A stretch of DNA of 64,000 nt, from the NCBI GenBank assembly GCA_016390365.1, contig GCA_016390365.1_3043.1. One strand, 5' to 3'. Below the pieces are notes generated by a model. It did not search any database. It was not told the DNA's origin and saw only the letters and a program-made list of their open reading frames with translations. The DNA is from a phage. The position numbers and the translations under genes are program-made. The first letter of the stretch is position 1. Each line of letters begins with the position of its first letter. Below are positions 2,833 to 31,345 of the stretch, one piece after another.

Positions 2833-3048
2833 ATGAAAATCTTTAAAGATGTAAAAGTTGGTGAAATTTTTTGTTTAGATAATGGTGATCAGTTAATTCG
2901 TATTTCACCTCTTAAGAGCGCTAGCGAGAAACCGACAGTTAATGCTACTTTAGCAAATAACAGTAATGAACGTTTCTGTATTGAAAATGATACTGAAACT
3001 TATACCGTAGAAGAGTTTTGGGAATTGAGCGTCGACTGCGACGATTAA
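2833..3048 (+). CDS. hypothetical protein
   Basis: 71-aa ORF with RBS GAGGTGAATT upstream. Confidence 0.5.
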   Translation: MKIFKDVKVGEIFCLDNGDQLIRISPLKSASEKPTVNATLANNSNERFCIENDTETYTVEEFWELSVDCDD

Positions 3049-3108
3049 TTTAATGGCCGCGTGTATTCATGCGGCCTTGGAGTAGAAAATAATTTAGAGG
3101 AAATTAAT

Positions 3109-3567
3109 ATGAAATATATGACTGCTACTGATCTGAATAATGCGGGCGCTACCGTTATTGGTACAATCAAGAACGGTGAATGGTTTTTGGGAACTCCGCA
3201 TAAAGACTTTTTATCTAAACCTGGATTTTACTTTTTAGTGAGTAAATTAGATGGTCGTCCATTTAGTAATCCATGCGTGTCTGCACGATTTTATGTAGGT
3301 AATCAGCGTTCTAAGCAAGGATTCAGTGCAGTTCTAAGTCATATTCGTCAACGTCGGTCTCAGCTTGCACGTACTATTGCAAATAACAATGTTCCATACG
3401 CAGTATTTTATCTGCCTGCTTCTAAGATGAAACCTCTGACGACGGGATTTGGAAAAGGACAGTTAGCTTTAGCGTTTACTCGTAATCATCATTCTGAGTA
3501 TCAAACACTTGAAGAAATGAACCGTATGTTGGCTGATAATTTTAAATTCGTTTTGCAGGCATATTAA
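3109..3567 (+). CDS. ndd: nucleoid disruption protein
   Basis: 152-aa ORF from ATG 3109 ([11 protein letters not shown]...); matches T4 Ndd from memory; track ORF begins upstream at 3061. Confidence 0.88.
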
Positions 3568-14577: not shown

Positions 14578-17500
14578 TTATTCAACCCATTCAAATTTAA
14601 CAGTTTTATTCACTGGGTCAGGAATAATGCGAACATTACCAATTCGCAAGAAATCGCGAATAGTAAGATTACCTATTATTCCATTATCAGATGGGATCGC
14701 TCCTATATCTGAAGGTTGAGGAGGGTTACCTCCGTCAAATACCTGAACAAAACTTGACCAAGAGTTTTTGGTTTTCTGCCATGTACGTGTCCAGCGAGTG
14801 GTACGTGCTTCTGGGGTCGTTGGATAAGTAATCCAATCTTGGTAAAGTGAATCAAGTGTGTTACCAAACTGAGTCAATGTACCAGGAGATTTAACTTCTT
14901 CGCCACGTTCTAAGTATGGAAGCCCAGTCACTTCATTAGTTTTTTCAACCATTTTAAAATAACCCGGGAACTGGTTATAAGTGGCTGAATCATTAATATC
15001 GATTGACCAGAATCCTACAGTATCAGATGTCGGCGCACGGGTATATAAATCAGATGTTTTAGTGCCCTGAGAACGAATTCTCGAGTTAACAGTTAAACCA
15101 CCTGAATTTATAGTAGCACCTTTAGCAATGATCAAGCTTTCACCAATTGTGACCTGCCCAGATTGATTATTAATGGACAATGGACGTAATCCATTAAATC
15201 CACCAGTCTGATCACCCGATGCAGTAAGCATAAAATTCGTTACTGATCCATCATTGCGAACAATGAAACCATAATTTCCGTTAATAGCACGGAAAGCATT
15301 TGCGCTTCGAGAAATAATTTCACCAGTTGCAGTGACTGAATTACCAAATGTTGCTACACCATTTGCATTCAATGTTCCTGAAGCATTAACATTTATCGGT
15401 GTTACTGTACCGTTGATATTAAATGTTATATTTCCAGCTTTATTACGCTGAGAATAAAAATGACTAGACGTTTCATCACTAACTTCAAATACGGTAGAAC
15501 GTGTTGTGTCTGATTCCCCGCTAAATTGATTTCCCCACACTCTGACTGTCATCGTTTGAGCTGGGTTTGTTCCAGTTTGAGGTCCTTTCTCAAAAATCAG
15601 ACGAGTTGCCGTTCCAGTATTAGAAATAGTTAATGTACTATTTGCTGAAACTGATCCACCGAATGTAGCAGTACTAGATGATACAAGAGGGGCACTCAGA
15701 TTCGTTTGTTGGGTTAAGGTTAGTGAACCATTAACTGTTTGTGCAATGTCCCTACGAATGAACTGGAGCGAATCTAGACCATCTAATAAATTACTATCTA
15801 CAGCTTTTGCTTTTAATGGCAAATAATTTGCTAATACGCGATTTAATTCATATGGTGATACTGCATAACCATTTTTCTCATATGATTCTAATGGCTGTGT
15901 TGAACCTACCGTATCATTACCAACGAATGTAATTGAACCAGATGAAGTTTTAACAAAACCTCTTATTGCAGTAGTAGCTGCCCAAGTAGGTTCACTCTGC
16001 ACAATCCATTTTAAATTTTTTGGAGATACAGCAGTATTTGCTGACGTTCCAGCTACAGTTTCAGACCGAGTTGCAACTTTAATAACGCCTTCCTGTGCTT
16101 CAGTAGATTTAGTACCTAAAAGCTTTTTAGGAGTTATTAGAACATTATCCAATGTTCCTGCAGCAGCTTCAACTTGTGTAGCTACACGAAGTGTACCACG
16201 CTGTGTCTCATTTGCTTCAAGAATATTAAGGGTATAATGGTCCCAGAGAGTTCCTGATTCAACTAATCCAGATAGAGCAACAACAGAAGTACGATCAGTA
16301 CTATTAAATCTGGTTTTAATTTTTAATGGTGTAGAGATACGAGTATCGTCGACGCCTGCGTCGAATTCAACTTGCGTAGCAATTTCAGCTATACCACTTA
16401 AACTTTCAGTTGCTCTACGGTCATTTAAAGTTTTAGGAGTGACTGCGCGAGTATAATCAGTTCCTGTATTAACTTCGCTTTGCGTAGCAATTTCAATTAA
16501 ACCAATTCTTCCATCAGTTGATGTCTTTTTATGTAACGTTTCTGGTGTTACAACCGCATTTGCCCATCCTTCTTGGCTTTGTCCAGCAATTACTTCACTT
16601 TCAACTGCTAAAATTACTGCGCCTTGTTGCGTTGGAGTAGCTTTATACTGATCCAAAGCTTTAGGTGAAACAACTAAATTATTAGTGTTTTTATTATAAA
16701 CATTTGTACCATTTAATTCACGACTAGAAGCTGGAGTAGCTCCTGCAGTAGATACAAAAGTTACAATACCCGATAATGTTTCAGAACCTTGACGAGCTTG
16801 AAGCTTTTTAGGAGTGATGATTGTAGTATCATCGATACCTGTATTAGTTTCCTGCTGCGTAGCAATTTCAGCAACACCTCTGCGAGTTTCTGTAGCAGTT
16901 CTTTCATTCAGCTTTTTAGGAGTGATGATAAGGTCATCTGCAAAAGAGAATGTAGTGTTCTGATTTACTTGAGCAGTAGTTGCTATTCTTGCAATACCTC
17001 TGCGAGTTTCTGTAGCAGTACGATTAGCTAACGTTTCTGGAGTAATTGCTAATTCTTTTTGTGGAGAATTTTCTAAATCAGCATTTGCTTGAGCTTGCGT
17101 AGCTAAAGCAATTACGCCTAATCTTGCTCTAGTAGAAGCATTTAAAGAGTCTACTCTTTCTACAGTTGGAACGTTTTGCTGTACAACCCAGTATTTTCCA
17201 TCAGAATCTTCTATATAAGCAAGTTGTAAAACTGGAACATAATTAGTTTCACCATTAAAAACTAATTCTTGAACTGTTACCCATTCAGCTTCAGGCGGAT
17301 ATTCTGAACGTTTTGGGAATTGCAGCAATTGAACTGAAGAAGCAATTTTATCTTCACCGGCAGCTTTGATTTTAACTGTTTGTCCTTTTCTCATGTAATT
17401 CATGGAAATTTTAACAGTATCACCAACAGAAATATCAGTCGGAAGCTGAAGCTCAATTGTTTGAGTTGTTCCATTATTCGCACCAAATACCATAACTTCT

Positions 17501-18447
17501 TCATTTGGACGAATGTTTGAATTAGTCGTTATAATGCGTAAACGTGCTTTACTATCCCCGTCAAACAATCTCCACAATTTCTCATTATCATCAAACATCA
17601 AGAAACCGTCAATCGATGTACGGCCTTCAATGGAATGAGTTCCAACTTCTTGCACTGACGTTGTTTCATCATATGTCGTAACAATTGTATGATAAAGTGG
17701 ATTTAATTTATCTAAATCAACGAAATTAATGATATCTCCATGATTGGCAAATCTTGGAAGTTTAACATTAATCGGTGCGGCAGAAGTAAATCTACGTACG
17801 ATAAAATCATTAGATTGTGCTTGATATGCAGTCGATGGAGTAACAATTGCAGCTTCTCTGCTATAATCAGCAATATACATTTGCCACAAACGGTTATTAA
17901 AAATGAATACCATCTGTGACTTTGGATGAGTCATTAAAACTGAACGTACCTGTTCACCTCTAAAATTGACAATACTCTGATTTGAAGAATTTATTTTAAC
18001 CTGATTTATGCCAGGTTTTCCACCGATATCTTGAATTATTACGGTTTCTCCATCAAGCGGAGAAGGTGGTAAAGTAAACTCAATGTCATTGCCAACTGAT
18101 GTATCTACTGAAATTGCTTCTCCGGATTTTAATTGATATGGTCCAGATGATACGGTTGTATATACGGCATCAGTACGTAATGCTTTCCAACGAATTCTAT
18201 TAAAATTTCCAGCAGGTTTTGGAATATTATCCGTTGCTGCCCAAAAACGATTATTATAAATGATTACAAAATCTTTTAAATATCCACGAGTTGGATCATA
18301 TTGCTGAACTGTGTTTTCTTGAATTAAGTAATCAACGTTAACACCGTCAGTTCCTACGGTACGATCAGCTAAAGCTACGTTGATTATTTTATCGCCACCT
18401 GCGTCCAGACCATCTTCTGCTCTGAACTTTCTTTTAATCTCGGCCAT
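14578..18447 (-). CDS. 34: long tail fiber proximal subunit gp34
   Basis: 1289-aa ORF, same length as T4 gp34; internal repeated motifs (..TPKKL..ATETRRG..IATQ..); late promoter upstream. Confidence 0.95.
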   Translation of the reverse strand: MAEIKRKFRAEDGLDAGGDKIINVALADRTVGTDGVNVDYLIQENTVQQYDPTRGYLKDFVIIYNNRFWAATDNIPKPAGNFNRIRWKALRTDAVYTTVSSGPYQLKSGEAISVDTSVGNDIEFTLPPSPLDGETVIIQDIGGKPGINQVKINSSNQSIVNFRGEQVRSVLMTHPKSQMVFIFNNRLWQMYIADYSREAAIVTPSTAYQAQSNDFIVRRFTSAAPINVKLPRFANHGDIINFVDLDKLNPLYHTIVTTYDETTSVQEVGTHSIEGRTSIDGFLMFDDNEKLWRLFDGDSKARLRIITTNSNIRPNEEVMVFGANNGTTQTIELQLPTDISVGDTVKISMNYMRKGQTVKIKAAGEDKIASSVQLLQFPKRSEYPPEAEWVTVQELVFNGETNYVPVLQLAYIEDSDGKYWVVQQNVPTVERVDSLNASTRARLGVIALATQAQANADLENSPQKELAITPETLANRTATETRRGIARIATTAQVNQNTTFSFADDLIITPKKLNERTATETRRGVAEIATQQETNTGIDDTTIITPKKLQARQGSETLSGIVTFVSTAGATPASSRELNGTNVYNKNTNNLVVSPKALDQYKATPTQQGAVILAVESEVIAGQSQEGWANAVVTPETLHKKTSTDGRIGLIEIATQSEVNTGTDYTRAVTPKTLNDRRATESLSGIAEIATQVEFDAGVDDTRISTPLKIKTRFNSTDRTSVVALSGLVESGTLWDHYTLNILEANETQRGTLRVATQVEAAAGTLDNVLITPKKLLGTKSTEAQEGVIKVATRSETVAGTSANTAVSPKNLKWIVQSEPTWAATTAIRGFVKTSSGSITFVGNDTVGSTQPLESYEKNGYAVSPYELNRVLANYLPLKAKAVDSNLLDGLDSLQFIRRDIAQTVNGSLTLTQQTNLSAPLVSSSTATFGGSVSANSTLTISNTGTATRLIFEKGPQTGTNPAQTMTVRVWGNQFSGESDTTRSTVFEVSDETSSHFYSQRNKAGNITFNINGTVTPINVNASGTLNANGVATFGNSVTATGEIISRSANAFRAINGNYGFIVRNDGSVTNFMLTASGDQTGGFNGLRPLSINNQSGQVTIGESLIIAKGATINSGGLTVNSRIRSQGTKTSDLYTRAPTSDTVGFWSIDINDSATYNQFPGYFKMVEKTNEVTGLPYLERGEEVKSPGTLTQFGNTLDSLYQDWITYPTTPEARTTRWTRTWQKTKNSWSSFVQVFDGGNPPQPSDIGAIPSDNGIIGNLTIRDFLRIGNVRIIPDPVNKTVKFEWVE
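16876..17019 (-). repeat. 34: direct repeats within gene 34
   Basis: Exact 24-nt ACCTCTGCGAGTTTCTGTAGCAGT at 16876..16899 and 16996..17019 (plus-strand coordinates), matching the repeated TATETRRG protein motif. Confidence 0.85.
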
Positions 18448-19747: not shown

Positions 19748-20063
19748 TATTCGTCCGGTCGATGAGACCGGTCTTTCAGAAAAAGAACTTTCAATCAAGA
19801 AAGAAAAGGATGAAATAGCAAAGCTTCTTGATCGTCAAGAAAACGGATTTATTATTGAAAAAATGATAGAAGAGTTTGGAATGAGTTATCTTGAAGCTAC
19901 AACAGCATTCTTGGAAGAAAACTCTATTCCTGAAACTCAATTTGCTAAATTTATTCCTTCGGGTATAATTGAAAAAATTCAGTCAGAAGCTATTGACGAA
20001 AATCTTTTACGTCCTTCTGTTGTTCGTTGTGAAAAAACTAATACATTAGATTTTCTACTATGA
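19725..20063 (+). CDS. 33: late transcription co-activator gp33
   Basis: 112 aa from ATG 19725 (MTQFSLNDIRPV...); matches T4 gp33. Confidence 0.9.
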   Translation: MTQFSLNDIRPVDETGLSEKELSIKKEKDEIAKLLDRQENGFIIEKMIEEFGMSYLEATTAFLEENSIPETQFAKFIPSGIIEKIQSEAIDENLLRPSVVRCEKTNTLDFLL

Positions 20064-20713
20064 TTAAACTCCGCATGCCTGCTGGTGGTGAAAGATATAT
20101 TGATGGTAAATCAGTTTATAAATTATACTTAATGATAAAACAACATATGAATGGAAAGTATGATGTAATTAAGTATAATTGGTGCATGCGGGTGTCTGAT
20201 GCCGCTTATCAAAAGCGAAGGGATAAGTATTTTTTCCAGAAGTTATCAGAAAAATATAAATTAAAGGAACTTGCTTTAATCTTTATAAGTAATTTGGTTG
20301 CTAACCAAGATGCTTGGATTGGTGACATCTCTGACGCTGATGCACTTGTGTTTTATCGTGAATATATCGGACGCTTAAAGCAAATTAAATTTAAGTTTGA
20401 AGAAGATATTCGCAACATTTATTATTTTAGTAAAAAAGTTGAAGTTTCTGCTTTTAAAGAAATCTTTGAATATAATCCAAAGGTTCAGTCAAGTTATATT
20501 TTTAAACTTCTGCAATCGAACATAATTTCGTTTGAGACGTTTATCTTGCTTGATTCGTTTTTAAATATAATTGATAAACATGATGAACAGACTGATAATT
20601 TAGTCTGGAATAATTATTCTATAAAGTTAAAGGCTTATAGAAAAATTTTAAATATTGATTCACAGAAAGCTAAAAATGTTTTCATTGAAACTGTGAAATC
20701 TTGCAAGTATTAA
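20060..20713 (+). CDS. 59: helicase loader gp59
   Basis: 217-aa ORF matching T4 gp59. Confidence 0.93.
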   Translation: MIKLRMPAGGERYIDGKSVYKLYLMIKQHMNGKYDVIKYNWCMRVSDAAYQKRRDKYFFQKLSEKYKLKELALIFISNLVANQDAWIGDISDADALVFYREYIGRLKQIKFKFEEDIRNIYYFSKKVEVSAFKEIFEYNPKVQSSYIFKLLQSNIISFETFILLDSFLNIIDKHDEQTDNLVWNNYSIKLKAYRKILNIDSQKAKNVFIETVKSCKY

Positions 20714-20812: not shown

Positions 20813-21721
20813 ATGTTTAAACGTAAATCTACTGCTGAACTCGCTGCACAAATGGCTAAACTGGCTGGAAATAAAGGTGGTTTTTCTTCTGAAGATAAAG
20901 GCGAGTGGAAACTGAAACTCGACAATGCGGGTAACGGTCAAGCAGTAATTCGTTTTCTTCCGTCTAAAAATGATGAACAAGCACCATTCGCAATTCTTGT
21001 AAATCACGGTTTCAAGAAAAATGGTAAATGGTATATTGAAAACTGTTCATCTACCCACGGTGATTACGATTCTTGCCCAGTATGTCAGTATATCAGTAAA
21101 AATGATTTGTACAACACTGACAATAAAGAGTACGGTCTTGTTAAACGTAAAACTTCTTACTGGGCTAACATTCTTGTTGTAAAAGACCCAGCTGCTCCAG
21201 AAAACGAAGGTAAAGTATTTAAATATCGTTTCGGTAAGAAAATCTGGGATAAAATCAATGCAATGATTGCGGTTGATGTTGAAATGGGTGAAACTCCGGT
21301 TGATGTAACTTGCCCGTGGGAAGGTGCTAACTTTGTACTGAAAGTTAAACAAGTTTCTGGTTTTAGTAACTACGACGAATCTAAATTCCTGAATCAATCT
21401 GCGATTCCAAACATTGACGATGAATCTTTCCAGAAAGAACTGTTCGAACAAATGGTTGACCTTTCTGAAATGACTTCTAAAGATAAATTCAAATCATTTG
21501 AAGAACTGAGCACTAAGTTCAGTCAAGTTATGGGAACTGCTGCAATGGGTGGTGCCGCTGCAACTGCCGCTAAGAAAGCTGATAAAGTTGCTGATGATTT
21601 GGATGCATTCAATGTTGATGACTTCAAAACAAAAACTGAAGATGATTTTATGAGCTCAAGCTCTGGCAGTTCATCTAGTGCTGATGACACGGACCTGGAT
21701 GACCTTTTGAATGACCTTTAA
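20813..21721 (+). CDS. 32: single-stranded DNA-binding protein gp32
   Basis: 302-aa ORF; sequence matches T4 gp32 including the acidic C-terminal tail; AU-rich leader upstream. Confidence 0.97.
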
Positions 21722-24068: not shown

Positions 24069-24088
24069 AATAATACGTGGCGGAAAAT

Positions 24089-24436
24089 ATGAATTTTAAT
24101 TATTACCCTATTCTATTAGAAGAAGACGCGAAACAGCCAAAGTGGCAGGGTCCTCAGTTTATTAAAGGTGTCTATCAATTAGTAGTTCCTAAAGACAAGA
24201 TTTATAGCAGTTGTTTCACTGAATCCGCTTGCAGTATTTTCGGTAATAGTTCTCCGTATTGGAATTTTGACATAAAGCTGAATAGAAATATCGATATTTG
24301 GTTGAAAGCTATGGATATTGGTAATATCACGTTTGATGAGAATAATTATCATATTATTGGTCGCTTTTCCAAACGCGGTAAAGAATTATATTTCACGCCT
24401 GAAATTGAGAGAAAATTTGATGCTAAACCGTATTGA
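24089..24436 (+). CDS. hypothetical protein between frd and td
   Basis: 115 aa from ATG 24089 (track ORF begins at GTG 24077); no motif recognised. Confidence 0.5.
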   Translation: MNFNYYPILLEEDAKQPKWQGPQFIKGVYQLVVPKDKIYSSCFTESACSIFGNSSPYWNFDIKLNRNIDIWLKAMDIGNITFDENNYHIIGRFSKRGKELYFTPEIERKFDAKPY

Positions 24437-24481: not shown

Positions 24482-25030
24482 ATGAAACAATACCAATTTT
24501 TAATTAAAGATATCCTGGAAAATGGCTACAAAACCGATGACCGAACAGGCACAGGAACAATTGCTTTGTTCGGTACTAAATTACGCTGGGATTTAACTAA
24601 AGGTTTTCCTGCAGTAACAACTAAGAAGCTCGCCTGGAAAGCTTGCATTGCTGAGCTAATATGGTTTTTATCGGGAAGCACAAATGTCAATGATTTGCGA
24701 TTAATTCAACATGATTCGTTAATCCAAGGCAAAACAGTTTGGGATGAAAATTACGAAAATCAAGCAAAAGATTTAGGATACCATAGCGGTGAACTTGGTC
24801 CAATTTATGGAAAACAGTGGCGTGATTTTGGTGGTGTAGACCAAATTATAGAAGTTATTGATCGTATTAAAAAACTGCCAAATGATAGGCGTCAAATTGT
24901 TTCTGCATGGAATCCAGCTGAACTTAAATATATGGCATTACCGCCTTGTCATATGTTCTATCAATTTAATGTTCGTAATGGATACCTTGACCTTCAGTGG
25001 TATCAACGTTCGGTAGATGTTTTCTTGGGT
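24482..25030 (+). CDS. td: thymidylate synthase, exon 1
   Basis: 183 codons of TS ending ..QRSVDVFLG; intron follows after the terminal U; the in-frame stop at 25031-25033 is the intron's first codon. Confidence 0.93.
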
Positions 25031-26045
25031 TAATTGAGGCCTGAGTATAAGGTGACTTATACTTGTAATCTATCTAAACGGGGAAACTCTCTAGTAGACA
25101 ATCCCGTGCTAAATTGTAGGACTGCCCTTAATAAATACTTCTATATTCAAAGAGGTATTTATGAAAAGCGGAATTTATCAGATTAAAAATACTTTAAACA
25201 ATAAAGTATATGTAGGAAGTGCTAAAGATTTTGAAAAGAGATGGAAGAGGCATTTTAAAGATTTAGAAAAAGGATGCCATTCTTCTATAAAACTTCAGAG
25301 GTCTTTTAACAAACATGGTAATGTGTTTGAATGTTCTATTTTGGAAGAAATTCCATATGAGAAAGATTTGATTATTGAACGAGAAAATTTTTGGATTAAA
25401 GAGCTTAATTCTAAAATTAATGGATACAATATTGCTGATGCAACGTTTGGTGATACATGTTCTACGCATCCATTAAAAGAAGAAATTATTAAGAAACGTT
25501 CTGAAACTGTTAAAGCTAAGATGCTTAAACTTGGACCTGATGGTCGGAAAGCTCTTTACAGTAAACCCGGAAGTAAAAATGGGCGTTGGAATCCAGAAAC
25601 CCATAAGTTTTGTAAGTGCGGTGTTCGCATACAAACTTCTGTTTATACTTGTAGTAAATGCAGAAATCGTTCAGGTGAAAATAATTCATTCTTTAATCAT
25701 AAGCATTCAGACATAACTAAATCTAAAATATCAGAAAAGATGAAAGGTAAAAAGCCTAGTAATATTAAAAAGATTTCATGTGATGGGGTTATTTTTGAAT
25801 GTGCAGCAGATGCAGCTAGACATTTTAAAATTTCGTCTGGATTAGTTACTTATCGTGTAAAATCTGATAAATGGAATTGGTTCTACATAAATGCCTAACG
25901 ACTATCCCTTTGGGGAGTAGGGTCAAGTGACTCGAAACGATAGACAACTTGCTTTAACAAGTTGGAGATATAGTCTGCTCTGCATGGTGACATGTAGCTG
26001 GATATAATTCCGGGGTAAGATTAACGACCTTATCTGAACATAATG
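25031..26045 (+). mobile_element. group I self-splicing intron in td, carrying the I-TevI gene
   Basis: 5' intron sequence TAATTGAGGCCTGAGTATAAGGTGACTTATACTTGTAATCTATCTAAACGGGG matches the T4 td intron from memory; ends ..CTGAACATAATG with terminal G; rejoined exons give a 286-aa TS. Confidence 0.88.
25161..25898 (+). CDS. GIY-YIG homing endonuclease I-TevI (intron-encoded)
   Basis: 245-aa ORF inside td intron; sequence matches I-TevI (MKSGIYQIKNTLNNKVYVGSAKDFEKRWKRHF...). Confidence 0.95.
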   Translation: MKSGIYQIKNTLNNKVYVGSAKDFEKRWKRHFKDLEKGCHSSIKLQRSFNKHGNVFECSILEEIPYEKDLIIERENFWIKELNSKINGYNIADATFGDTCSTHPLKEEIIKKRSETVKAKMLKLGPDGRKALYSKPGSKNGRWNPETHKFCKCGVRIQTSVYTCSKCRNRSGENNSFFNHKHSDITKSKISEKMKGKKPSNIKKISCDGVIFECAADAARHFKISSGLVTYRVKSDKWNWFYINA

Positions 26046-26357
26046 CTACCGTTTAATATTGCATCATATGCTACGTTAGTTCATATTGTAGCTAAGATGT
26101 GTAATCTTATTCCGGGAGATTTGATATTTTCCGGTGGTAATACTCATATCTATATGAATCACGTAGAACAATGTAAAGAAATTTTGCGTCGTGAACCTAT
26201 GGATTTATGCGAATTACAATTAAAATTTCCAGATGAATTTGATGAATGGGACACAGAATCGCAGGTATTTTGGTTGAGTCAATTCGCAAAGCCGCATAAT
26301 TTTGTTCTTAACAACTATGAATCACACCCTCCTATTAAAGGAAAGATGGCGGTGTAA
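26046..26357 (+). CDS. td: thymidylate synthase, exon 2
   Basis: 103 codons in frame with exon 1 after intron removal ([21 protein letters not shown]...). Confidence 0.9.
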
Positions 26358-26377: not shown

Positions 26378-26623
26378 ATGATTTTACGATTTAAAGATAC
26401 TTCTGGCGTTGTTCTTTTTACACTTCCTAACCCAAGCGAGTTAGAAGTTCCAGGACCAGAACAGCCTATTATCATTTATGGTAAAAAATACTATACTCAT
26501 AAAATGACTCGTGAGTATTTTGATAATAAAATTTCCACAGTTAAAACTTCTTCTGACTGTTACTATGATATTACTGTATTAACGGAAAAACAATATGACG
26601 AATGTAGAACTTTAGCAGTATAA
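26378..26623 (+). CDS. hypothetical protein (nrdA.1-like position)
   Basis: 81 aa from ATG 26378 with RBS GCGAGGATAT; track ORF begins at TTG 26366. Confidence 0.45.
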
Positions 26624-27343
26624 ATATGATTCCCAGCAATCTAGAGCGCATCTTTTAGATATAAGTTTTCTGCTTATTCCGGTTTGACGCACAGCTTCTG
26701 CTATTGTTGGATATTCTACCCCATCTATACTTACTCTTAGATGGGGTTTCTTTTTACCTCTCTGTGAGTCAGAAATTCGTTTTCTAACTTCATTGGTATG
26801 CGTCTGTCCGTAATATGGATTATTGATGCCTTTCATATTAAGTGCAGCGTTTCTTTCTTGGAACTTTTTGCTTATTTCTATAGCACGATCTAACCCATAG
26901 TGTTCTTCTATAGTTTTACCTTTGATGTCTCTAGGTCTACCATGTTTTTGCTTAAGTTCTTCTGGTGATAATTTTGAATTATTATTTTTAATTGCATTTG
27001 AAATTTTATTAAGGATTTCTTGCTTTCTTGGGTGATGAGATAAGGTATCCCCAAACGATGCGTCTGCTATATTATACCCATTTTCCTTTGAGTCATATTC
27101 ATGCATCCAATAATTTTCACGTTCAATAATGATAGATTTTTCGTATGGAAGTTCTTCTATGATTTTACATACGAAAGCATCTTTACCATGCTTATTATAA
27201 GAACGCTGCAGCTTTATTGAATGATGATTTCCATTATCTAAATCTTTAAAGTGTCGTTTCCATCGTTCTTCAAAATTAATTGCACTTCCTATATAGTGCT
27301 TATTAGTTTTAGTGTTTATAATAGCATATATTCCAGATTTCAT
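26612..27343 (-). CDS. free-standing GIY-YIG homing endonuclease (I-TevI paralog)
   Basis: 243-aa ORF; N-terminal about 100 aa closely parallels I-TevI catalytic domain (GIY..YIG, ERWKRHF, IERENYW, NGYNIAD); SD AGGAG and late promoter upstream on minus strand. Confidence 0.8.
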
Positions 27344-27365
27344 TATATTCTCCTATATAAAATTA

Positions 27366-27373
27366 TATTTATA
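27366..27373 (-). promoter_or_regulatory. late promoter (TATAAATA) for free-standing GIY-YIG endonuclease gene
   Basis: TATTTATA on plus strand, 22 nt upstream of the ATG, with SD AGGAG in between. Confidence 0.6.
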
Positions 27374-27398
27374 TGGGGTAACTTACTACAGAGGACTT

Positions 27399-29663
27399 AT
27401 GCAATTAATTAATGTTATCAAAAGTAGTGGTGTTTCTCAGAGCTTTGACCCGCAAAAAATTATTAAAGTTTTATCTTGGGCAGCTGAGGGAACATCAGTA
27501 GATCCTTATGAATTATATGAAAATATTAAATCATATCTCCGTGATGGAATGACAACTGATGACATTCAGACTATTGTCATTAAGGCTGCTGCGAATTCTA
27601 TTTCGGTTGAAGAACCTGATTATCAATATGTAGCTGCACGTTGTTTAATGTTTGCTCTTCGTAAGCATGTTTATGGGCAGTATGAACCACGTTCATTTAT
27701 TGACCATATTTCTTACTGTGTAAATGAAGGTAAATATGACCCCGAATTATTGTCAAAATATTCAGCAGAAGAAATTACATTTTTAGAATCAAAAATTAAG
27801 CACGAACGGGATATGGAATTTACTTATTCCGGGGCGATGCAATTAAAAGAAAAATATCTAGTTAAAGATAAAACCACTGGTCAAATTTATGAAACTCCAC
27901 AGTTTGCATTTATGACTATTGGAATGGCATTGCATCAAGATGAACCTGTTGATAGATTAAAACATGTTATTCGTTTTTATGAAGCAGTATCTACTCGACA
28001 GATTTCACTGCCAACTCCTATTATGGCTGGTTGCCGTACTCCGACTCGACAGTTCAGTTCATGCGTTGTTATTGAGGCAGGAGATTCATTGAAGTCTATC
28101 AATAAGGCTTCCGCTTCGATTGTTGAATATATCTCTAAACGCGCTGGAATTGGTATTAACGTTGGTATGATTCGTGCCGAAGGTTCTAAGATTGGCATGG
28201 GTGAAGTACGCCATACTGGTGTTATTCCTTTTTGGAAACATTTTCAGACTGCTGTTAAATCATGTTCACAGGGTGGAATTCGTGGCGGCGCTGCTACTGC
28301 TTATTATCCTATTTGGCATTTGGAAGTTGAAAATCTTCTCGTTTTGAAAAATAACAAAGGCGTAGAAGAAAACCGTATCCGTCATATGGATTATGGCGTT
28401 CAACTGAATGACCTAATGATGGAACGATTCGGAAAGAATGATTACATTACTTTGTTCAGTCCGCATGAAATGGGTGGCGAACTTTATTATTCTTATTTTA
28501 AAGACCAAGACCGTTTCAGTGAATTATACGAAGCAGCAGAAAAAGACCCTAATATTCGTAAAAAGCGTATTAAAGCCCGTGAACTATTTGAATTGCTCAT
28601 GACTGAACGTTCAGGAACAGCAAGGATTTATGTACAGTTCATTGATAATACGAATAACTATACTCCGTTTATTCGTGAAAAGGCACCTATTCGTCAGAGT
28701 AACTTGTGCTGTGAAATTGCTATTCCAACAAATGACGTGAATAGTCCTGATGCTGAAATTGGATTGTGTACTCTCTCTGCGTTCGTACTAGATAATTTTG
28801 ACTGGCAAGACCAAGATAAAATTAATGAATTGGCAGAAGTTCAAGTTCGTGCTCTTGATAATCTTTTGGATTACCAAGGATATCCAGTTCCTGAAGCAGA
28901 AAAAGCTAAAAAGCGTCGTAACCTCGGTGTAGGTGTTACTAACTATGCAGCTTGGCTGGCAAGTAACTTTGCTTCTTATGAAGATGCTAACGATTTAACA
29001 CATGAACTATTTGAGAGATTACAGTATGGACTCATTAAAGCATCCATTAAGCTCGCCAAAGAAAAAGGACCTTGCGAATATTATTCAGACACTCGTTGGT
29101 CTCGAGGCGAATTACCTATCGACTGGTACAATAAAAAGATTGACCAAATCGCTGCGCCTAACTACGTGTGTGATTGGGACGAACTTCGATCTGAACTCAA
29201 ACAGCATGGAATTCGAAATTCTACTTTATCCGCGTTGATGCCATGTGAGTCATCTTCCCAAGTTTCTAACAGTACAAACGGTATCGAGCCTCCACGTGGA
29301 CCAGTCTCTGTTAAAGAATCAAAAGAGGGCTCCTTTAATCAAGTCGTGCCCAATATTGAGCATAACATAGACCTTTACGATTATACATGGAAATTAGCTA
29401 AGAAAGGTAATAAACCTTATCTTACGCAGGTAGCTATTATGCTGAAATGGGTTTGTCAATCAGCTTCGGCGAATACATACTATGACCCGCAGATTTTTCC
29501 AAAAGGAAAGGTTCCAATGTCATTAATGATTGATGATATGCTATACGGATGGTATTATGGCATTAAAAATTTCTATTATCATAATACCCGCGATGGTTCT
29601 GGTACTGATGATTATGAAATAGAAACTCCAAAAGCTGAAGATTGTTCATCCTGTAAATTATGA
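27399..29663 (+). CDS. nrdA: aerobic ribonucleotide reductase large subunit
   Basis: 754 aa from ATG 27399 (MQLINVIKSSGVSQSF...); matches T4 NrdA; track ORF is extended upstream to 27312. Confidence 0.97.
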   Translation: MQLINVIKSSGVSQSFDPQKIIKVLSWAAEGTSVDPYELYENIKSYLRDGMTTDDIQTIVIKAAANSISVEEPDYQYVAARCLMFALRKHVYGQYEPRSFIDHISYCVNEGKYDPELLSKYSAEEITFLESKIKHERDMEFTYSGAMQLKEKYLVKDKTTGQIYETPQFAFMTIGMALHQDEPVDRLKHVIRFYEAVSTRQISLPTPIMAGCRTPTRQFSSCVVIEAGDSLKSINKASASIVEYISKRAGIGINVGMIRAEGSKIGMGEVRHTGVIPFWKHFQTAVKSCSQGGIRGGAATAYYPIWHLEVENLLVLKNNKGVEENRIRHMDYGVQLNDLMMERFGKNDYITLFSPHEMGGELYYSYFKDQDRFSELYEAAEKDPNIRKKRIKARELFELLMTERSGTARIYVQFIDNTNNYTPFIREKAPIRQSNLCCEIAIPTNDVNSPDAEIGLCTLSAFVLDNFDWQDQDKINELAEVQVRALDNLLDYQGYPVPEAEKAKKRRNLGVGVTNYAAWLASNFASYEDANDLTHELFERLQYGLIKASIKLAKEKGPCEYYSDTRWSRGELPIDWYNKKIDQIAAPNYVCDWDELRSELKQHGIRNSTLSALMPCESSSQVSNSTNGIEPPRGPVSVKESKEGSFNQVVPNIEHNIDLYDYTWKLAKKGNKPYLTQVAIMLKWVCQSASANTYYDPQIFPKGKVPMSLMIDDMLYGWYYGIKNFYYHNTRDGSGTDDYEIETPKAEDCSSCKL

Positions 29664-30500: not shown

Positions 30501-30508
30501 TATAAATA
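30501..30508 (+). promoter_or_regulatory. late promoter (TATAAATA) inside nrdB intron for I-TevIII
   Basis: Exact TATAAATA 28 nt upstream of the endonuclease ORF. Confidence 0.6.
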
Positions 30509-30535: not shown

Positions 30536-31345
30536 TTGAACTATAGAAAAATTTGGATAGATGCTAACGGACCTATACCTAAAGATTCTGATGGAAGAAC
30601 ATACGAAATCCATCATAAAGACGGTAACCGTGAAAATAATGATTTAGATAATTTGATGTGCCTTTCTATACAGGAACATTATGATATACATTTAGCTCAA
30701 AAAGATTACCAGGCTTGTCATGCTATAAAGCTTAGAATGAAATATTCTCCTGAAGAAATTTCTGAATTAGCTTCTAAAGCCGCAAAATCTAGAGAAATCC
30801 AGATTTTTAATATCCCTGAAGTACGAGCTAAAAATATTGCCTCTATTAAATCTAAGATAGAAAATGGTACATTTCATCTTTTAGACGGTGAAATACAGCG
30901 TAAATCTAATTTAAATAGAGTTGCATTAGGTATACATAATTTTCAACAAGCTGAGCATATTGTAAAAGTTAAAGAACGCAATATTGCAGCTATAAAAGAA
31001 GGTACTCATGTATTTTGCGGTGGTAAAATGCAGTCAGAAACTCAATCAAAACGGGTAAATGACGGTTCACATCATTTCTTGTCAGAAGACCATAAGAAAA
31101 GAACATCAGCAAAAACATTAGAAATGGTTAAGAACGGGACCCATCCTGCACAAAAAGAAATCACATGTGATTTCTGCGGTCACATTGGTAAAGGTCCTGG
31201 ATTTTATCTAAAACATAATGACAGATGTAAATTAAATCCAAATAGAATTCAATTGAATTGTCCATATTGTGATAAGAAAGATTTATCACCATCAACATAT
31301 AAACGATGGCACGGCGACAATTGCAAAGCAAGGTTCAACGACTAG
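30536..31345 (+). CDS. HNH homing endonuclease I-TevIII (intron-encoded, full length)
   Basis: 269-aa ORF inside nrdB intron with zinc-finger-like Cys pairs; ORF as tracked begins at TTG 30536 with SD AAGAGGA 7 nt upstream; TATAAATA at 30501. Confidence 0.8.
   Translation: MNYRKIWIDANGPIPKDSDGRTYEIHHKDGNRENNDLDNLMCLSIQEHYDIHLAQKDYQACHAIKLRMKYSPEEISELASKAAKSREIQIFNIPEVRAKNIASIKSKIENGTFHLLDGEIQRKSNLNRVALGIHNFQQAEHIVKVKERNIAAIKEGTHVFCGGKMQSETQSKRVNDGSHHFLSEDHKKRTSAKTLEMVKNGTHPAQKEITCDFCGHIGKGPGFYLKHNDRCKLNPNRIQLNCPYCDKKDLSPSTYKRWHGDNCKARFND

Follow-up and report, generated by a model that had tools for sequence, protein, structure and literature searches.

A free-standing relative of I-TevI in a putative mobile cassette at the nrdA.1 site of T4-like phages

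The td intron together with its endonuclease I-TevI represents a textbook mobile group I intron, and enzymes of the I-TevI subfamily introduce double-strand breaks distant from the binding site, with preference for CNNNG and with 2-nt 3′ overhangs. Stand-alone GIY-YIG genes of Seg type (SegA-G) are described for T4 as well, intronless homing having been shown for SegF and SegG, and a further arrangement, collaborative or trans homing, is exemplified by F-CphI with the psbA intron of cyanophage S-PM2 and by MobE with the nrdB intron of T4. I-BmoI, a GIY-YIG enzyme from the thyA intron of Bacillus mojavensis, is I-TevI-like and contains NUMOD3-type modules but no zinc finger of the I-TevI type. 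To our knowledge, the route of endonuclease genes into introns has been argued from just two or three natural examples. Here, we consider a phage DNA stretch of 64,000 nucleotides (GenBank assembly GCA_016390365.1, contig GCA_016390365.1_3043.1; hereafter the window), in which a gene for a 243-amino-acid (aa) GIY-YIG protein lies on the minus strand between td and nrdA. With a probability of roughly three in four, in our estimate, it is a functional free-standing homing endonuclease of the I-TevI subfamily, carried by a 788-bp cassette that replaces nrdA.1 and spreads by intronless homing.

Comparison with the I-TevI of the T4 td intron (structures 1MK0, 1LN0, and 1I3J) reveals a shared plan comprising the GIY-YIG domain, the N-terminal part of the linker, a NUMOD3 helix, and a C-terminal helix-turn-helix; the lengths are nearly equal (243 versus 245 aa), and both genes have a late-promoter motif upstream and reside in the neighborhood of td. 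In contrast to intron-encoded I-TevI, the gene considered here lies outside an intron and on the opposite strand, its product is devoid of the Cys4 zinc finger, the tail is about 30% identical and the target therefore probably different, and no operator-like copy of a target is found at its promoter. With the Seg-type enzymes it shares the stand-alone position of a gene wedged between conserved genes and polymorphic in close relatives, as well as the expected mode of spread, through repair of double-strand breaks in which the flanks are co-converted; even the antisense placement has a precedent in segD (PMC2988022). It differs from them in belonging by sequence to the I-TevI subfamily and to no named Seg, in occupying the nrdA.2/nrdA locus (the table of endonuclease sites in the review of T4 mobile elements lists none at td/nrdA; PMC2988022), in replacing the resident gene nrdA.1 instead of being a plain addition, and in that no carrier-specific flank polymorphism of the kind known for the gene 56 and gene 32 cases was detected. 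The collaborative pairs resemble this locus in that a free-standing endonuclease gene stands beside a gene with a group I intron, which in phage N2 is free of an open reading frame (ORF), but here the intronless carriers share the sequence of the td insertion site with non-carriers, arguing against a target at this site. I-BmoI, intron-encoded and bacterial unlike the gene described here, is likened to it by description, through the association with thymidylate synthase. Thus, by sequence and predicted fold, the protein is a member of the I-TevI subfamily without two of its hallmarks, zinc finger and intron residence, and by its apparent genomic behavior it is a Seg-like free-standing homing endonuclease at a locus unoccupied in T4.

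The gene itself adds one more predicted homing endonuclease to a phage group already rich in such genes. What makes it worth attention is a full-length relative of I-TevI located outside the intron beside the same gene, accompanied in some phages by an I-TevI intron, in others by an ORF-less one, and in still others by an intronless td. This gives an experimental system in T4-like phages of E. coli and Klebsiella for studying target choice without the finger, whether the finger is an innovation specific to the intron form, and whether both forms cooperate; the compact nuclease-linker module lacking the finger may also be of interest for Tev-fusion genome editors.

The endonuclease and its cassette

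The earlier note, made from the sequence alone, had described a 243-aa minus-strand ORF with an I-TevI-like N-terminal catalytic domain and considered it an I-TevI paralog. Both the ORF list and the sequence confirm the reading frame with the start quoted there (ATG at 27343-27341), and the catalytic domain is about 68% identical to that of I-TevI, with a target-normalized template modeling score, TM(target), of 0.88 in Foldseek and a Pfam match to GIY-YIG (PF01541, E=7e-15). Residues Y6, Y17, R27, H31, H40, E76, and N91 (Tyr6, Tyr17, Arg27, His31, His40, Glu75, and Asn90 in I-TevI numbering) are all intact and invariant in 62 of 62 aligned family members, so that the loss of the catalytic Arg or Glu, named in the note as a possible objection, is not observed. 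The proposal of a different C-terminal DNA-binding region, on the other hand, did not survive. In BLASTP, the protein and the window's own intron-encoded I-TevI align over their full length with 46% identity; the C-terminus shows sequence similarity to 1I3J, the DNA-binding domain of I-TevI (E=2.8e-7), and the AlphaFold2 (AF2) model, with a predicted local distance difference test score of 80, matches 1i3j_A by fold (E=5e-4, 30% identity, Foldseek). NUMOD3 is recognized in two stretches (E=2e-6), and I-TevI_DNA-bd (PF20987) scores 21.4 bits, which is under its gathering score of 27. Judged from sequence and model, the tail is thus homologous to that of I-TevI at about 30% identity, and what truly sets the two proteins apart is that the zinc finger has been lost.

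This loss is visible in several ways. The Cys4 finger family PF22635 is unmatched, and the four Cys columns of the family alignment are occupied by I, a gap, R, and A, whereas the resident I-TevI of the window matches I-TevI_DNA-bd, I-TevI_ZnF, and GIY-YIG. The AF2 model predicts a helix at aa 151-167, where I-TevI has its finger, the helices of the linker being 107-123, 127-134, and 145-167 and those of the tail 184-194, 214-221, and 225-233. In the 62-member alignment the four zinc-binding Cys are restricted to the clade of intron-resident I-TevI, and the endonuclease of the window falls into a separate clade. Since the finger of I-TevI is a ruler that fixes the cleavage distance and stops the enzyme from cutting its own operator (PMC2988022), in a relative deprived of it the position of the cut would be expected to depend mostly on sequence.

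Alignment by MAFFT of 10 Tequatrovirus carriers (among them the window, LH2, Ozark, N2, CJY920, TB004, sutha, RPN226, and ECO07P5) with 7 non-carriers (T4, T6, ESCO58, ECML-134, EC121, NBG2, and SG1) delimits the cassette sharply. At the same position T4 and T6 have nrdA.2 and nrdA.1 and no endonuclease, in agreement with the earlier note, to which no homing endonuclease was known here in T4, and the cassette takes the place of about 301 bp, which comprise ~40 nt at the end of nrdA.2 together with the entire nrdA.1. Homology stops at the left edge after ...CAATATGACGAA (26602), inside the end of nrdA.2, and restarts at the right edge with GAGGACTTATGCAA (27391), which is the nrdA Shine-Dalgarno sequence; in Jiaodavirus the right junction falls at exactly this base. 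Carriers of the latter genus contain the same gene between td and nrdA (89-92% aa identity), and its non-carriers have at this site a 68-aa ORF and an nrdA.1 homolog 72% identical to T4 NrdA.1. Since one and the same site is held either by the endonuclease or by nrdA.1, the two are mutually exclusive occupants in both genera.

Antisense to both of its neighbors, nrdA.2 and nrdA, the gene has flanks collinear with the intergenic and gene sequences of T4 and T6, which bears out its earlier description as free-standing, antisense between td and nrdA and outside any intron. An Rfam search gave no intron around it. At gathering thresholds the ORF-containing td and nrdB introns of the window were not called, as is expected from the large ORF insertions in those introns.

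The cassette is infrequent in Tequatrovirus: 9 of 701 matching records (8 phages), or about 1% of records of Tequatrovirus type, cover at least 80% of a 2-kb td-endonuclease-nrdA query, and the same nine records, none of them the genome of the window, have protein identity of at least 99%. The best matches to the window as a whole in the phage collection (91% coverage, 96% identity) are without the cassette. In Jiaodavirus (Klebsiella phages), 18 records of 170 (about 12%) contain it at 80-95% identity. The gene is absent from the classical T-even and RB genomes, while its labels in existing records are "homing endonuclease", "GIY-YIG nuclease family protein", or "I-TevI", so that it is already annotated by prediction in about two dozen other phage genomes. 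A gene annotated at this locus in well-studied T-even phages had been named in the earlier note as an argument against its proposal, and here the outcome is divided: the annotated gene does exist at the same locus in 8 Tequatrovirus phages and 18 Jiaodavirus records, but none of them is a classical, experimentally studied T-even phage. The novelty was therefore overstated. The accompanying remark that endonuclease sites familiar from T4 are vacant here proved right for segG (a gap of 99 bp between gene 59, 20060-20713, and gene 32, 20813-21721), for mobE (51 bp between nrdA and nrdB), and for segD and segE, as the 24/23 (61999/62083) and uvsW/inh (56950/57001) gaps are too short, all four intervals falling within 50-100 bp. 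A search of IMG/VR for further loci returned just two distant matches with 30-37% identity, which were of no use.

The ratio of nonsynonymous to synonymous substitution rates (dN/dS) of the endonuclease gene is 0.03-0.10 within and between genera, indicating purifying selection; its value of 0.10 against orthologs, together with the domain matches, confirms that the ORF is not a chance one. Between the window and Klebsiella phage Nispero the endonuclease is 91.8% identical with dS of 0.35, while dS of the adjacent nrdA reaches about 2.2. Across windows of 100 nt, phages of E. coli and Klebsiella are 85-99% identical over the cassette and ~70% identical in nrdA, with the step exactly at 27390/27391, from at least 96% down to about 70%. 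Within Jiaodavirus (Nispero versus PKO111) the relation is reversed, the endonuclease (89%) being more diverged than the flanking nrdA (91-100%). The copy of the window is a mosaic whose 3′ portion resembles PKO111 more and whose 5′ portion resembles Nispero more, and within the Jiaodavirus alleles the copies from Tequatrovirus are nested as one tight group. The backgrounds of carriers vary as well: td may contain the I-TevI intron, an ORF-less intron (N2), or no intron (Ozark and ECO07P5), and in the Jiaodavirus carriers looked at td is intronless. Taken together, the contrast in dS, the step at the junction, the mosaicism, and the variety of td backgrounds indicate that the cassette moves horizontally between genera independently of its flanks. 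Most simply, one acquisition from a Jiaodavirus-like donor would have been followed by spread among Tequatrovirus phages.

Some Jiaodavirus carriers (PKO111, L018, ~2835-3150; KP179, L034, 2550-2850) possess an additional insert of ~300 bp with a small ORF, placed between the endonuclease promoter and nrdA.

Probable location of the target and competing explanations

From what is known of the family we infer the following course of events. Late in mixed infection the enzyme would bind by its C-terminal tail and cut the DNA of a co-infecting phage without the cassette, somewhere between td and nrdA; recombinational repair off the carrier genome would then copy the cassette in ("intronless homing"), displacing nrdA.1, and the insertion would destroy the target site, leaving carriers immune. 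Immunity of carriers, if it is based on sequence, requires a sequence that separates them from sensitive genomes, and this was sought as single columns, as sites monomorphic in carriers (a relaxed criterion), and as sliding haplotypes of 15-40 nt. Across the 10 carriers and 7 non-carriers of Tequatrovirus, td exon 1, td exon 2, nrdA.2, and nrdA to +1000 are without a fixed or carrier-monomorphic difference and without a private haplotype of 20 nt or less; sites 27563 (synonymous) and 28253 pass the relaxed criterion as isolated positions, and the flank single-nucleotide polymorphisms (SNPs) 26459/26461 and 27563 are partially linked to the cassette. Likewise, comparison of 5 carriers with 5 non-carriers of Jiaodavirus gave, junctions aside, no carrier-specific site or haplotype of up to 20 nt in td and in nrdA to +1500. 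The earlier note had placed the likely target in td or nrdA of relatives lacking the gene, and for neither gene did these comparisons yield a carrier-specific sequence. A profile of the 30-mers that the window shares with the 7 non-carriers mostly reflected private SNPs and was uninformative. As only the nrdA.1 segment and the junctions differ between carriers and non-carriers in two genera, the target lies most likely there, probably in the replaced nrdA.1 segment or across its edge, where the insertion would destroy the site, as it does for intron-encoded enzymes.

It might be supposed instead that the enzyme targets td, possibly near the intron insertion site, in a form of collaborative or trans homing where the intron protects the carrier and an ORF-less intron is mobilized in trans, the gene being at the same time the free-living form that gave rise to intron-resident I-TevI. 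One argument for this comes from genomic context, examined for 14 of the 80 homologs found, spread over the tree. The order td-endonuclease-nrdA with a free-standing gene is found in the window, in Jiaodavirus, in Yersinia phage phiR1-RT (g234), in Acinetobacter phage Octan, and for family members P0004, P0007, P0012, and P0037; in Acj133, P0043, and P0054 the gene stands downstream of td even without adjacent nrdA; P0052 and P0019 are inside td, and P0020 is between pieces of td. Hence 14 of 14 sampled members are inside td or immediately downstream, whatever their orientation. Several phages hold both forms, like the window (L023 and L033), the tail is homologous to that of I-TevI, and N2 pairs the free-standing gene with an ORF-less td group I intron (L005, 21305-21552; Rfam Intron_gpI, 72.6 bits), in which the I-TevI ORF region is swapped for a 12-nt GTTCTTTTGAAC loop. 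Such linkage fits, without proving it, the proposal of intron invasion by free-standing endonucleases that were already adapted to the gene concerned (Zeng, 2009; Bonocora and Shub, 2009; both as summarized in PMC3984707). Nevertheless, a td target is rather unlikely. Some carriers have a td without intron (Ozark, ECO07P5, and those Jiaodavirus carriers that were looked at) and seem to argue against cleavage of the insertion site by this enzyme; in carrier PKO111 the I-TevI homing-site region of td is identical to that of non-carriers; neither genus has a carrier-specific td haplotype; with tail identity of ~30% the same DNA specificity as that of I-TevI is not expected; and in the window nrdA.2 separates the gene from td. 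We are equally doubtful about the broader idea that the td-adjacent zinc-finger-less enzymes constitute the free-living lineage behind intron-resident I-TevI, still cutting the td region and pairing with ORF-less introns. If it were true, a living intermediate in the origin of the td mobile intron would be at hand, and the zinc finger would be dated as a post-invasion adaptation for distance control and autorepression.

A decaying or domesticated endonuclease, retained as a non-mobile DNA-binding regulator of the divergent nrdA or of its own promoter, or as a nuclease directed against competitors, appears improbable to us, more so than cleavage of td. Domestication would accord with the proven autorepressor function of I-TevI, whose zinc-finger mutants lose distance control (PMC2988022), with the cassette abutting the nrdA ribosome-binding site, with the rarity of the gene in Tequatrovirus, and with strong purifying selection, which is also expected from a host-beneficial function; it is opposed by the integrity of all catalytic residues, by the clear evidence that the cassette was transferred between genera without its flanks, and by the absence of operator-like similarity, since comparison of 27344-27400 with the td-nrdA loci of T4, T6, and KP13 in search of an I-TevI-style operator copy gave 0 matches of at least 15/20, below shuffled controls. 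The existence of a 161-nt inverted repeat, 73% identical, to I-TevI at a distance of 1.86 kb could make one think of a spurious or pseudogenised ORF resembling I-TevI via local duplication of the intron gene. This is refuted for practical purposes by the full length of the ORF, by its conservation with dN/dS of 0.1 in many metagenomic contigs as well as in 26 or more phage records, and by its position in a clade separate from I-TevI, hence not that of a recent duplicate.

Intronless homing of the cassette into the nrdA.1 site remains the preferred reading, and several points weigh against it. The motif TATAAATA is by itself weak evidence in this AT-rich window, where it is only mildly enriched (15 copies versus 9.0±2.7 expected). 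The samples behind the location of the target are small (10 versus 7 and 5 versus 5), and a certain amount of self-cleavage is known from Seg enzymes, which weakens the premise of immunity through sequence; a target in td or nrdA may be compatible with cutting of this kind. At the level of the family the constant neighbor is td and not nrdA.1. The frequency of ~1% in Tequatrovirus is lower than one would expect of an element that homes efficiently, except in the case of a recent arrival. Finally, literature searches returned no characterization of the gene or its orthologs, with no cleavage, expression, or homing data for the protein or any ortholog.

The 3′ end of td was considered as a target footprint and rejected: the signal observed there corresponds to three mosaic haplotypes unrelated to the cassette, and the window has the T6 type. 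The mosaic itself deserves mention, as the 3′ part of td exon 2 (26200-26330) exists among close relatives in three sharply distinct haplotypes (T4, T6, and Ozark types) that change the C-terminal coding sequence within an essential gene; the Jiaodavirus analogue is a variant longer by 15 nt (KP179 and KpV477).

Transcription signals, neighboring genes, and other variable slots

Table 1. Coordinates of the endonuclease gene, its putative signals and domains, the cassette, and adjacent genes in the window.
Feature	Position	Strand	Basis or remark
Putative mobile cassette, 788 bp	26603..27390	.	MAFFT, carriers versus non-carriers
Free-standing GIY-YIG homing endonuclease gene (predicted), 243 aa, zinc-finger-less I-TevI paralog	26612..27343	-	ORF, Pfam, BLASTP
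Catalytic GIY-YIG domain, aa 1-98	27050..27343	-	1MK0/1LN0, E=1e-39
Interdomain linker, aa 99-170	26834..27049	-	"Deletion-intolerant" stretch of I-TevI kept; zinc finger gone
C-terminal DNA-binding region, aa 171-243, with NUMOD3 helix (184-194) and helix-turn-helix (214-233)	26615..26833	-	Pfam, 1I3J, AF2
Shine-Dalgarno sequence AGGAG, 6 nt ahead of ATG	27350..27354	-	Sequence reading
T4 late-promoter motif TATAAATA, separated from ATG by 22 nt	27366..27373	-	Predicted, sequence reading
td	24482..26357	+	Exon 1 24482 to ~25030, intron, exon 2 ~26046 to 26357
Canonical I-TevI encoded in the td intron, 245 aa, with zinc finger; resident paralog	25161..25898	+	Pfam
nrdA.2 (DUF5496), altered C-terminus ...DECRTLAV	26378..26623	+	Pfam DUF5496, E=6e-53; comparison with T4/T6 NrdA.2
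nrdA, divergent neighbor	27399..29663	+	ORF list, alignment

The start signals of the endonuclease gene (Table 1) were found as the earlier note had them, including a Shine-Dalgarno sequence of its own, the exact late-promoter motif, and nrdA diverging 55 bp away with its ATG at 27399 and its Shine-Dalgarno sequence GAGGA at 27391-27395. The late-promoter copy upstream of the endonuclease is kept in the Jiaodavirus cassettes of Nispero and PKO111. At the other end of the gene, nrdA.2 overlaps its 3′ terminus by 12 nt.

Two further candidate signals of the cassette are directed toward nrdA. An exact plus-strand TATAAATA at 26619-26626, close to the left cassette edge and over the last codons of the endonuclease (YLY), is kept in all Tequatrovirus carriers and could serve late antisense or nrdA transcription or be due to chance. 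On the same strand, TGCTTAT and TATAAT separated by 13 nt (27297-27322), within the GIY-coding 5′ end of the endonuclease, resemble a MotA-dependent middle promoter of T4, which could replace the nrdA promoter lost with nrdA.1. The sequence TATAATAGC is common to this region and to the 3′ end of nrdA.1 of T6, and a weak hairpin (27282-27299) overlaps the candidate promoter.

The inverted repeat between the two endonuclease genes pairs the 5′ end of I-TevI (25161-25321) with that of the free-standing paralog (27183-27343), flanks td exon 2 and nrdA.2, and is a potential substrate for inversion or for gene conversion between both genes. An origin of the free-standing gene as a recent duplicate of the resident I-TevI was considered and rejected, given the separate clades and nucleotide identity of just 73% over 161 nt.

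Other endonuclease genes vary around the same block in relatives. In N2 a gene for a 530-aa "Hef-like" endonuclease (16072-17664) lies between nrdA and nrdB, where the window has nothing. In RPN226 (L009, 4403-7571) and in a metagenomic relative (L023, 765-3919), nrdA is split into two ORFs by a gene for an HNH/I-HmuI-like endonuclease, which recalls the mobE-split nrdA of Aeromonas phage Aeh1. The zinc-finger-less P0020 (L032, 2055-4124) lies between a seemingly full-length td (285 aa) and a 96-aa fragment of thymidylate synthase, an arrangement that could reflect either an intron at another position of td or duplication of the td 3′ end by insertion.

Within the window, a 119-aa ORF without Pfam match (24077-24436, plus strand) lies between frd and td. 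In T4-type relatives (SG1 and RPN226) frd abuts td, LH2 and EC121 have a 207-nt ORF there, and Ozark has the same 360-nt ORF as the window, which makes this interval another variable slot of the frd-td-nrdA block. The nrdB intron contains a gene for a full-length 269-aa HNH endonuclease (30536-31345, plus strand) of I-TevIII type, which like that of RB3 is free of the truncation seen in T4, with an exact TATAAATA at 30501-30508, 28 nt upstream; a Pfam match to FlgM in the middle of this protein (25.7 bits) is probably spurious.

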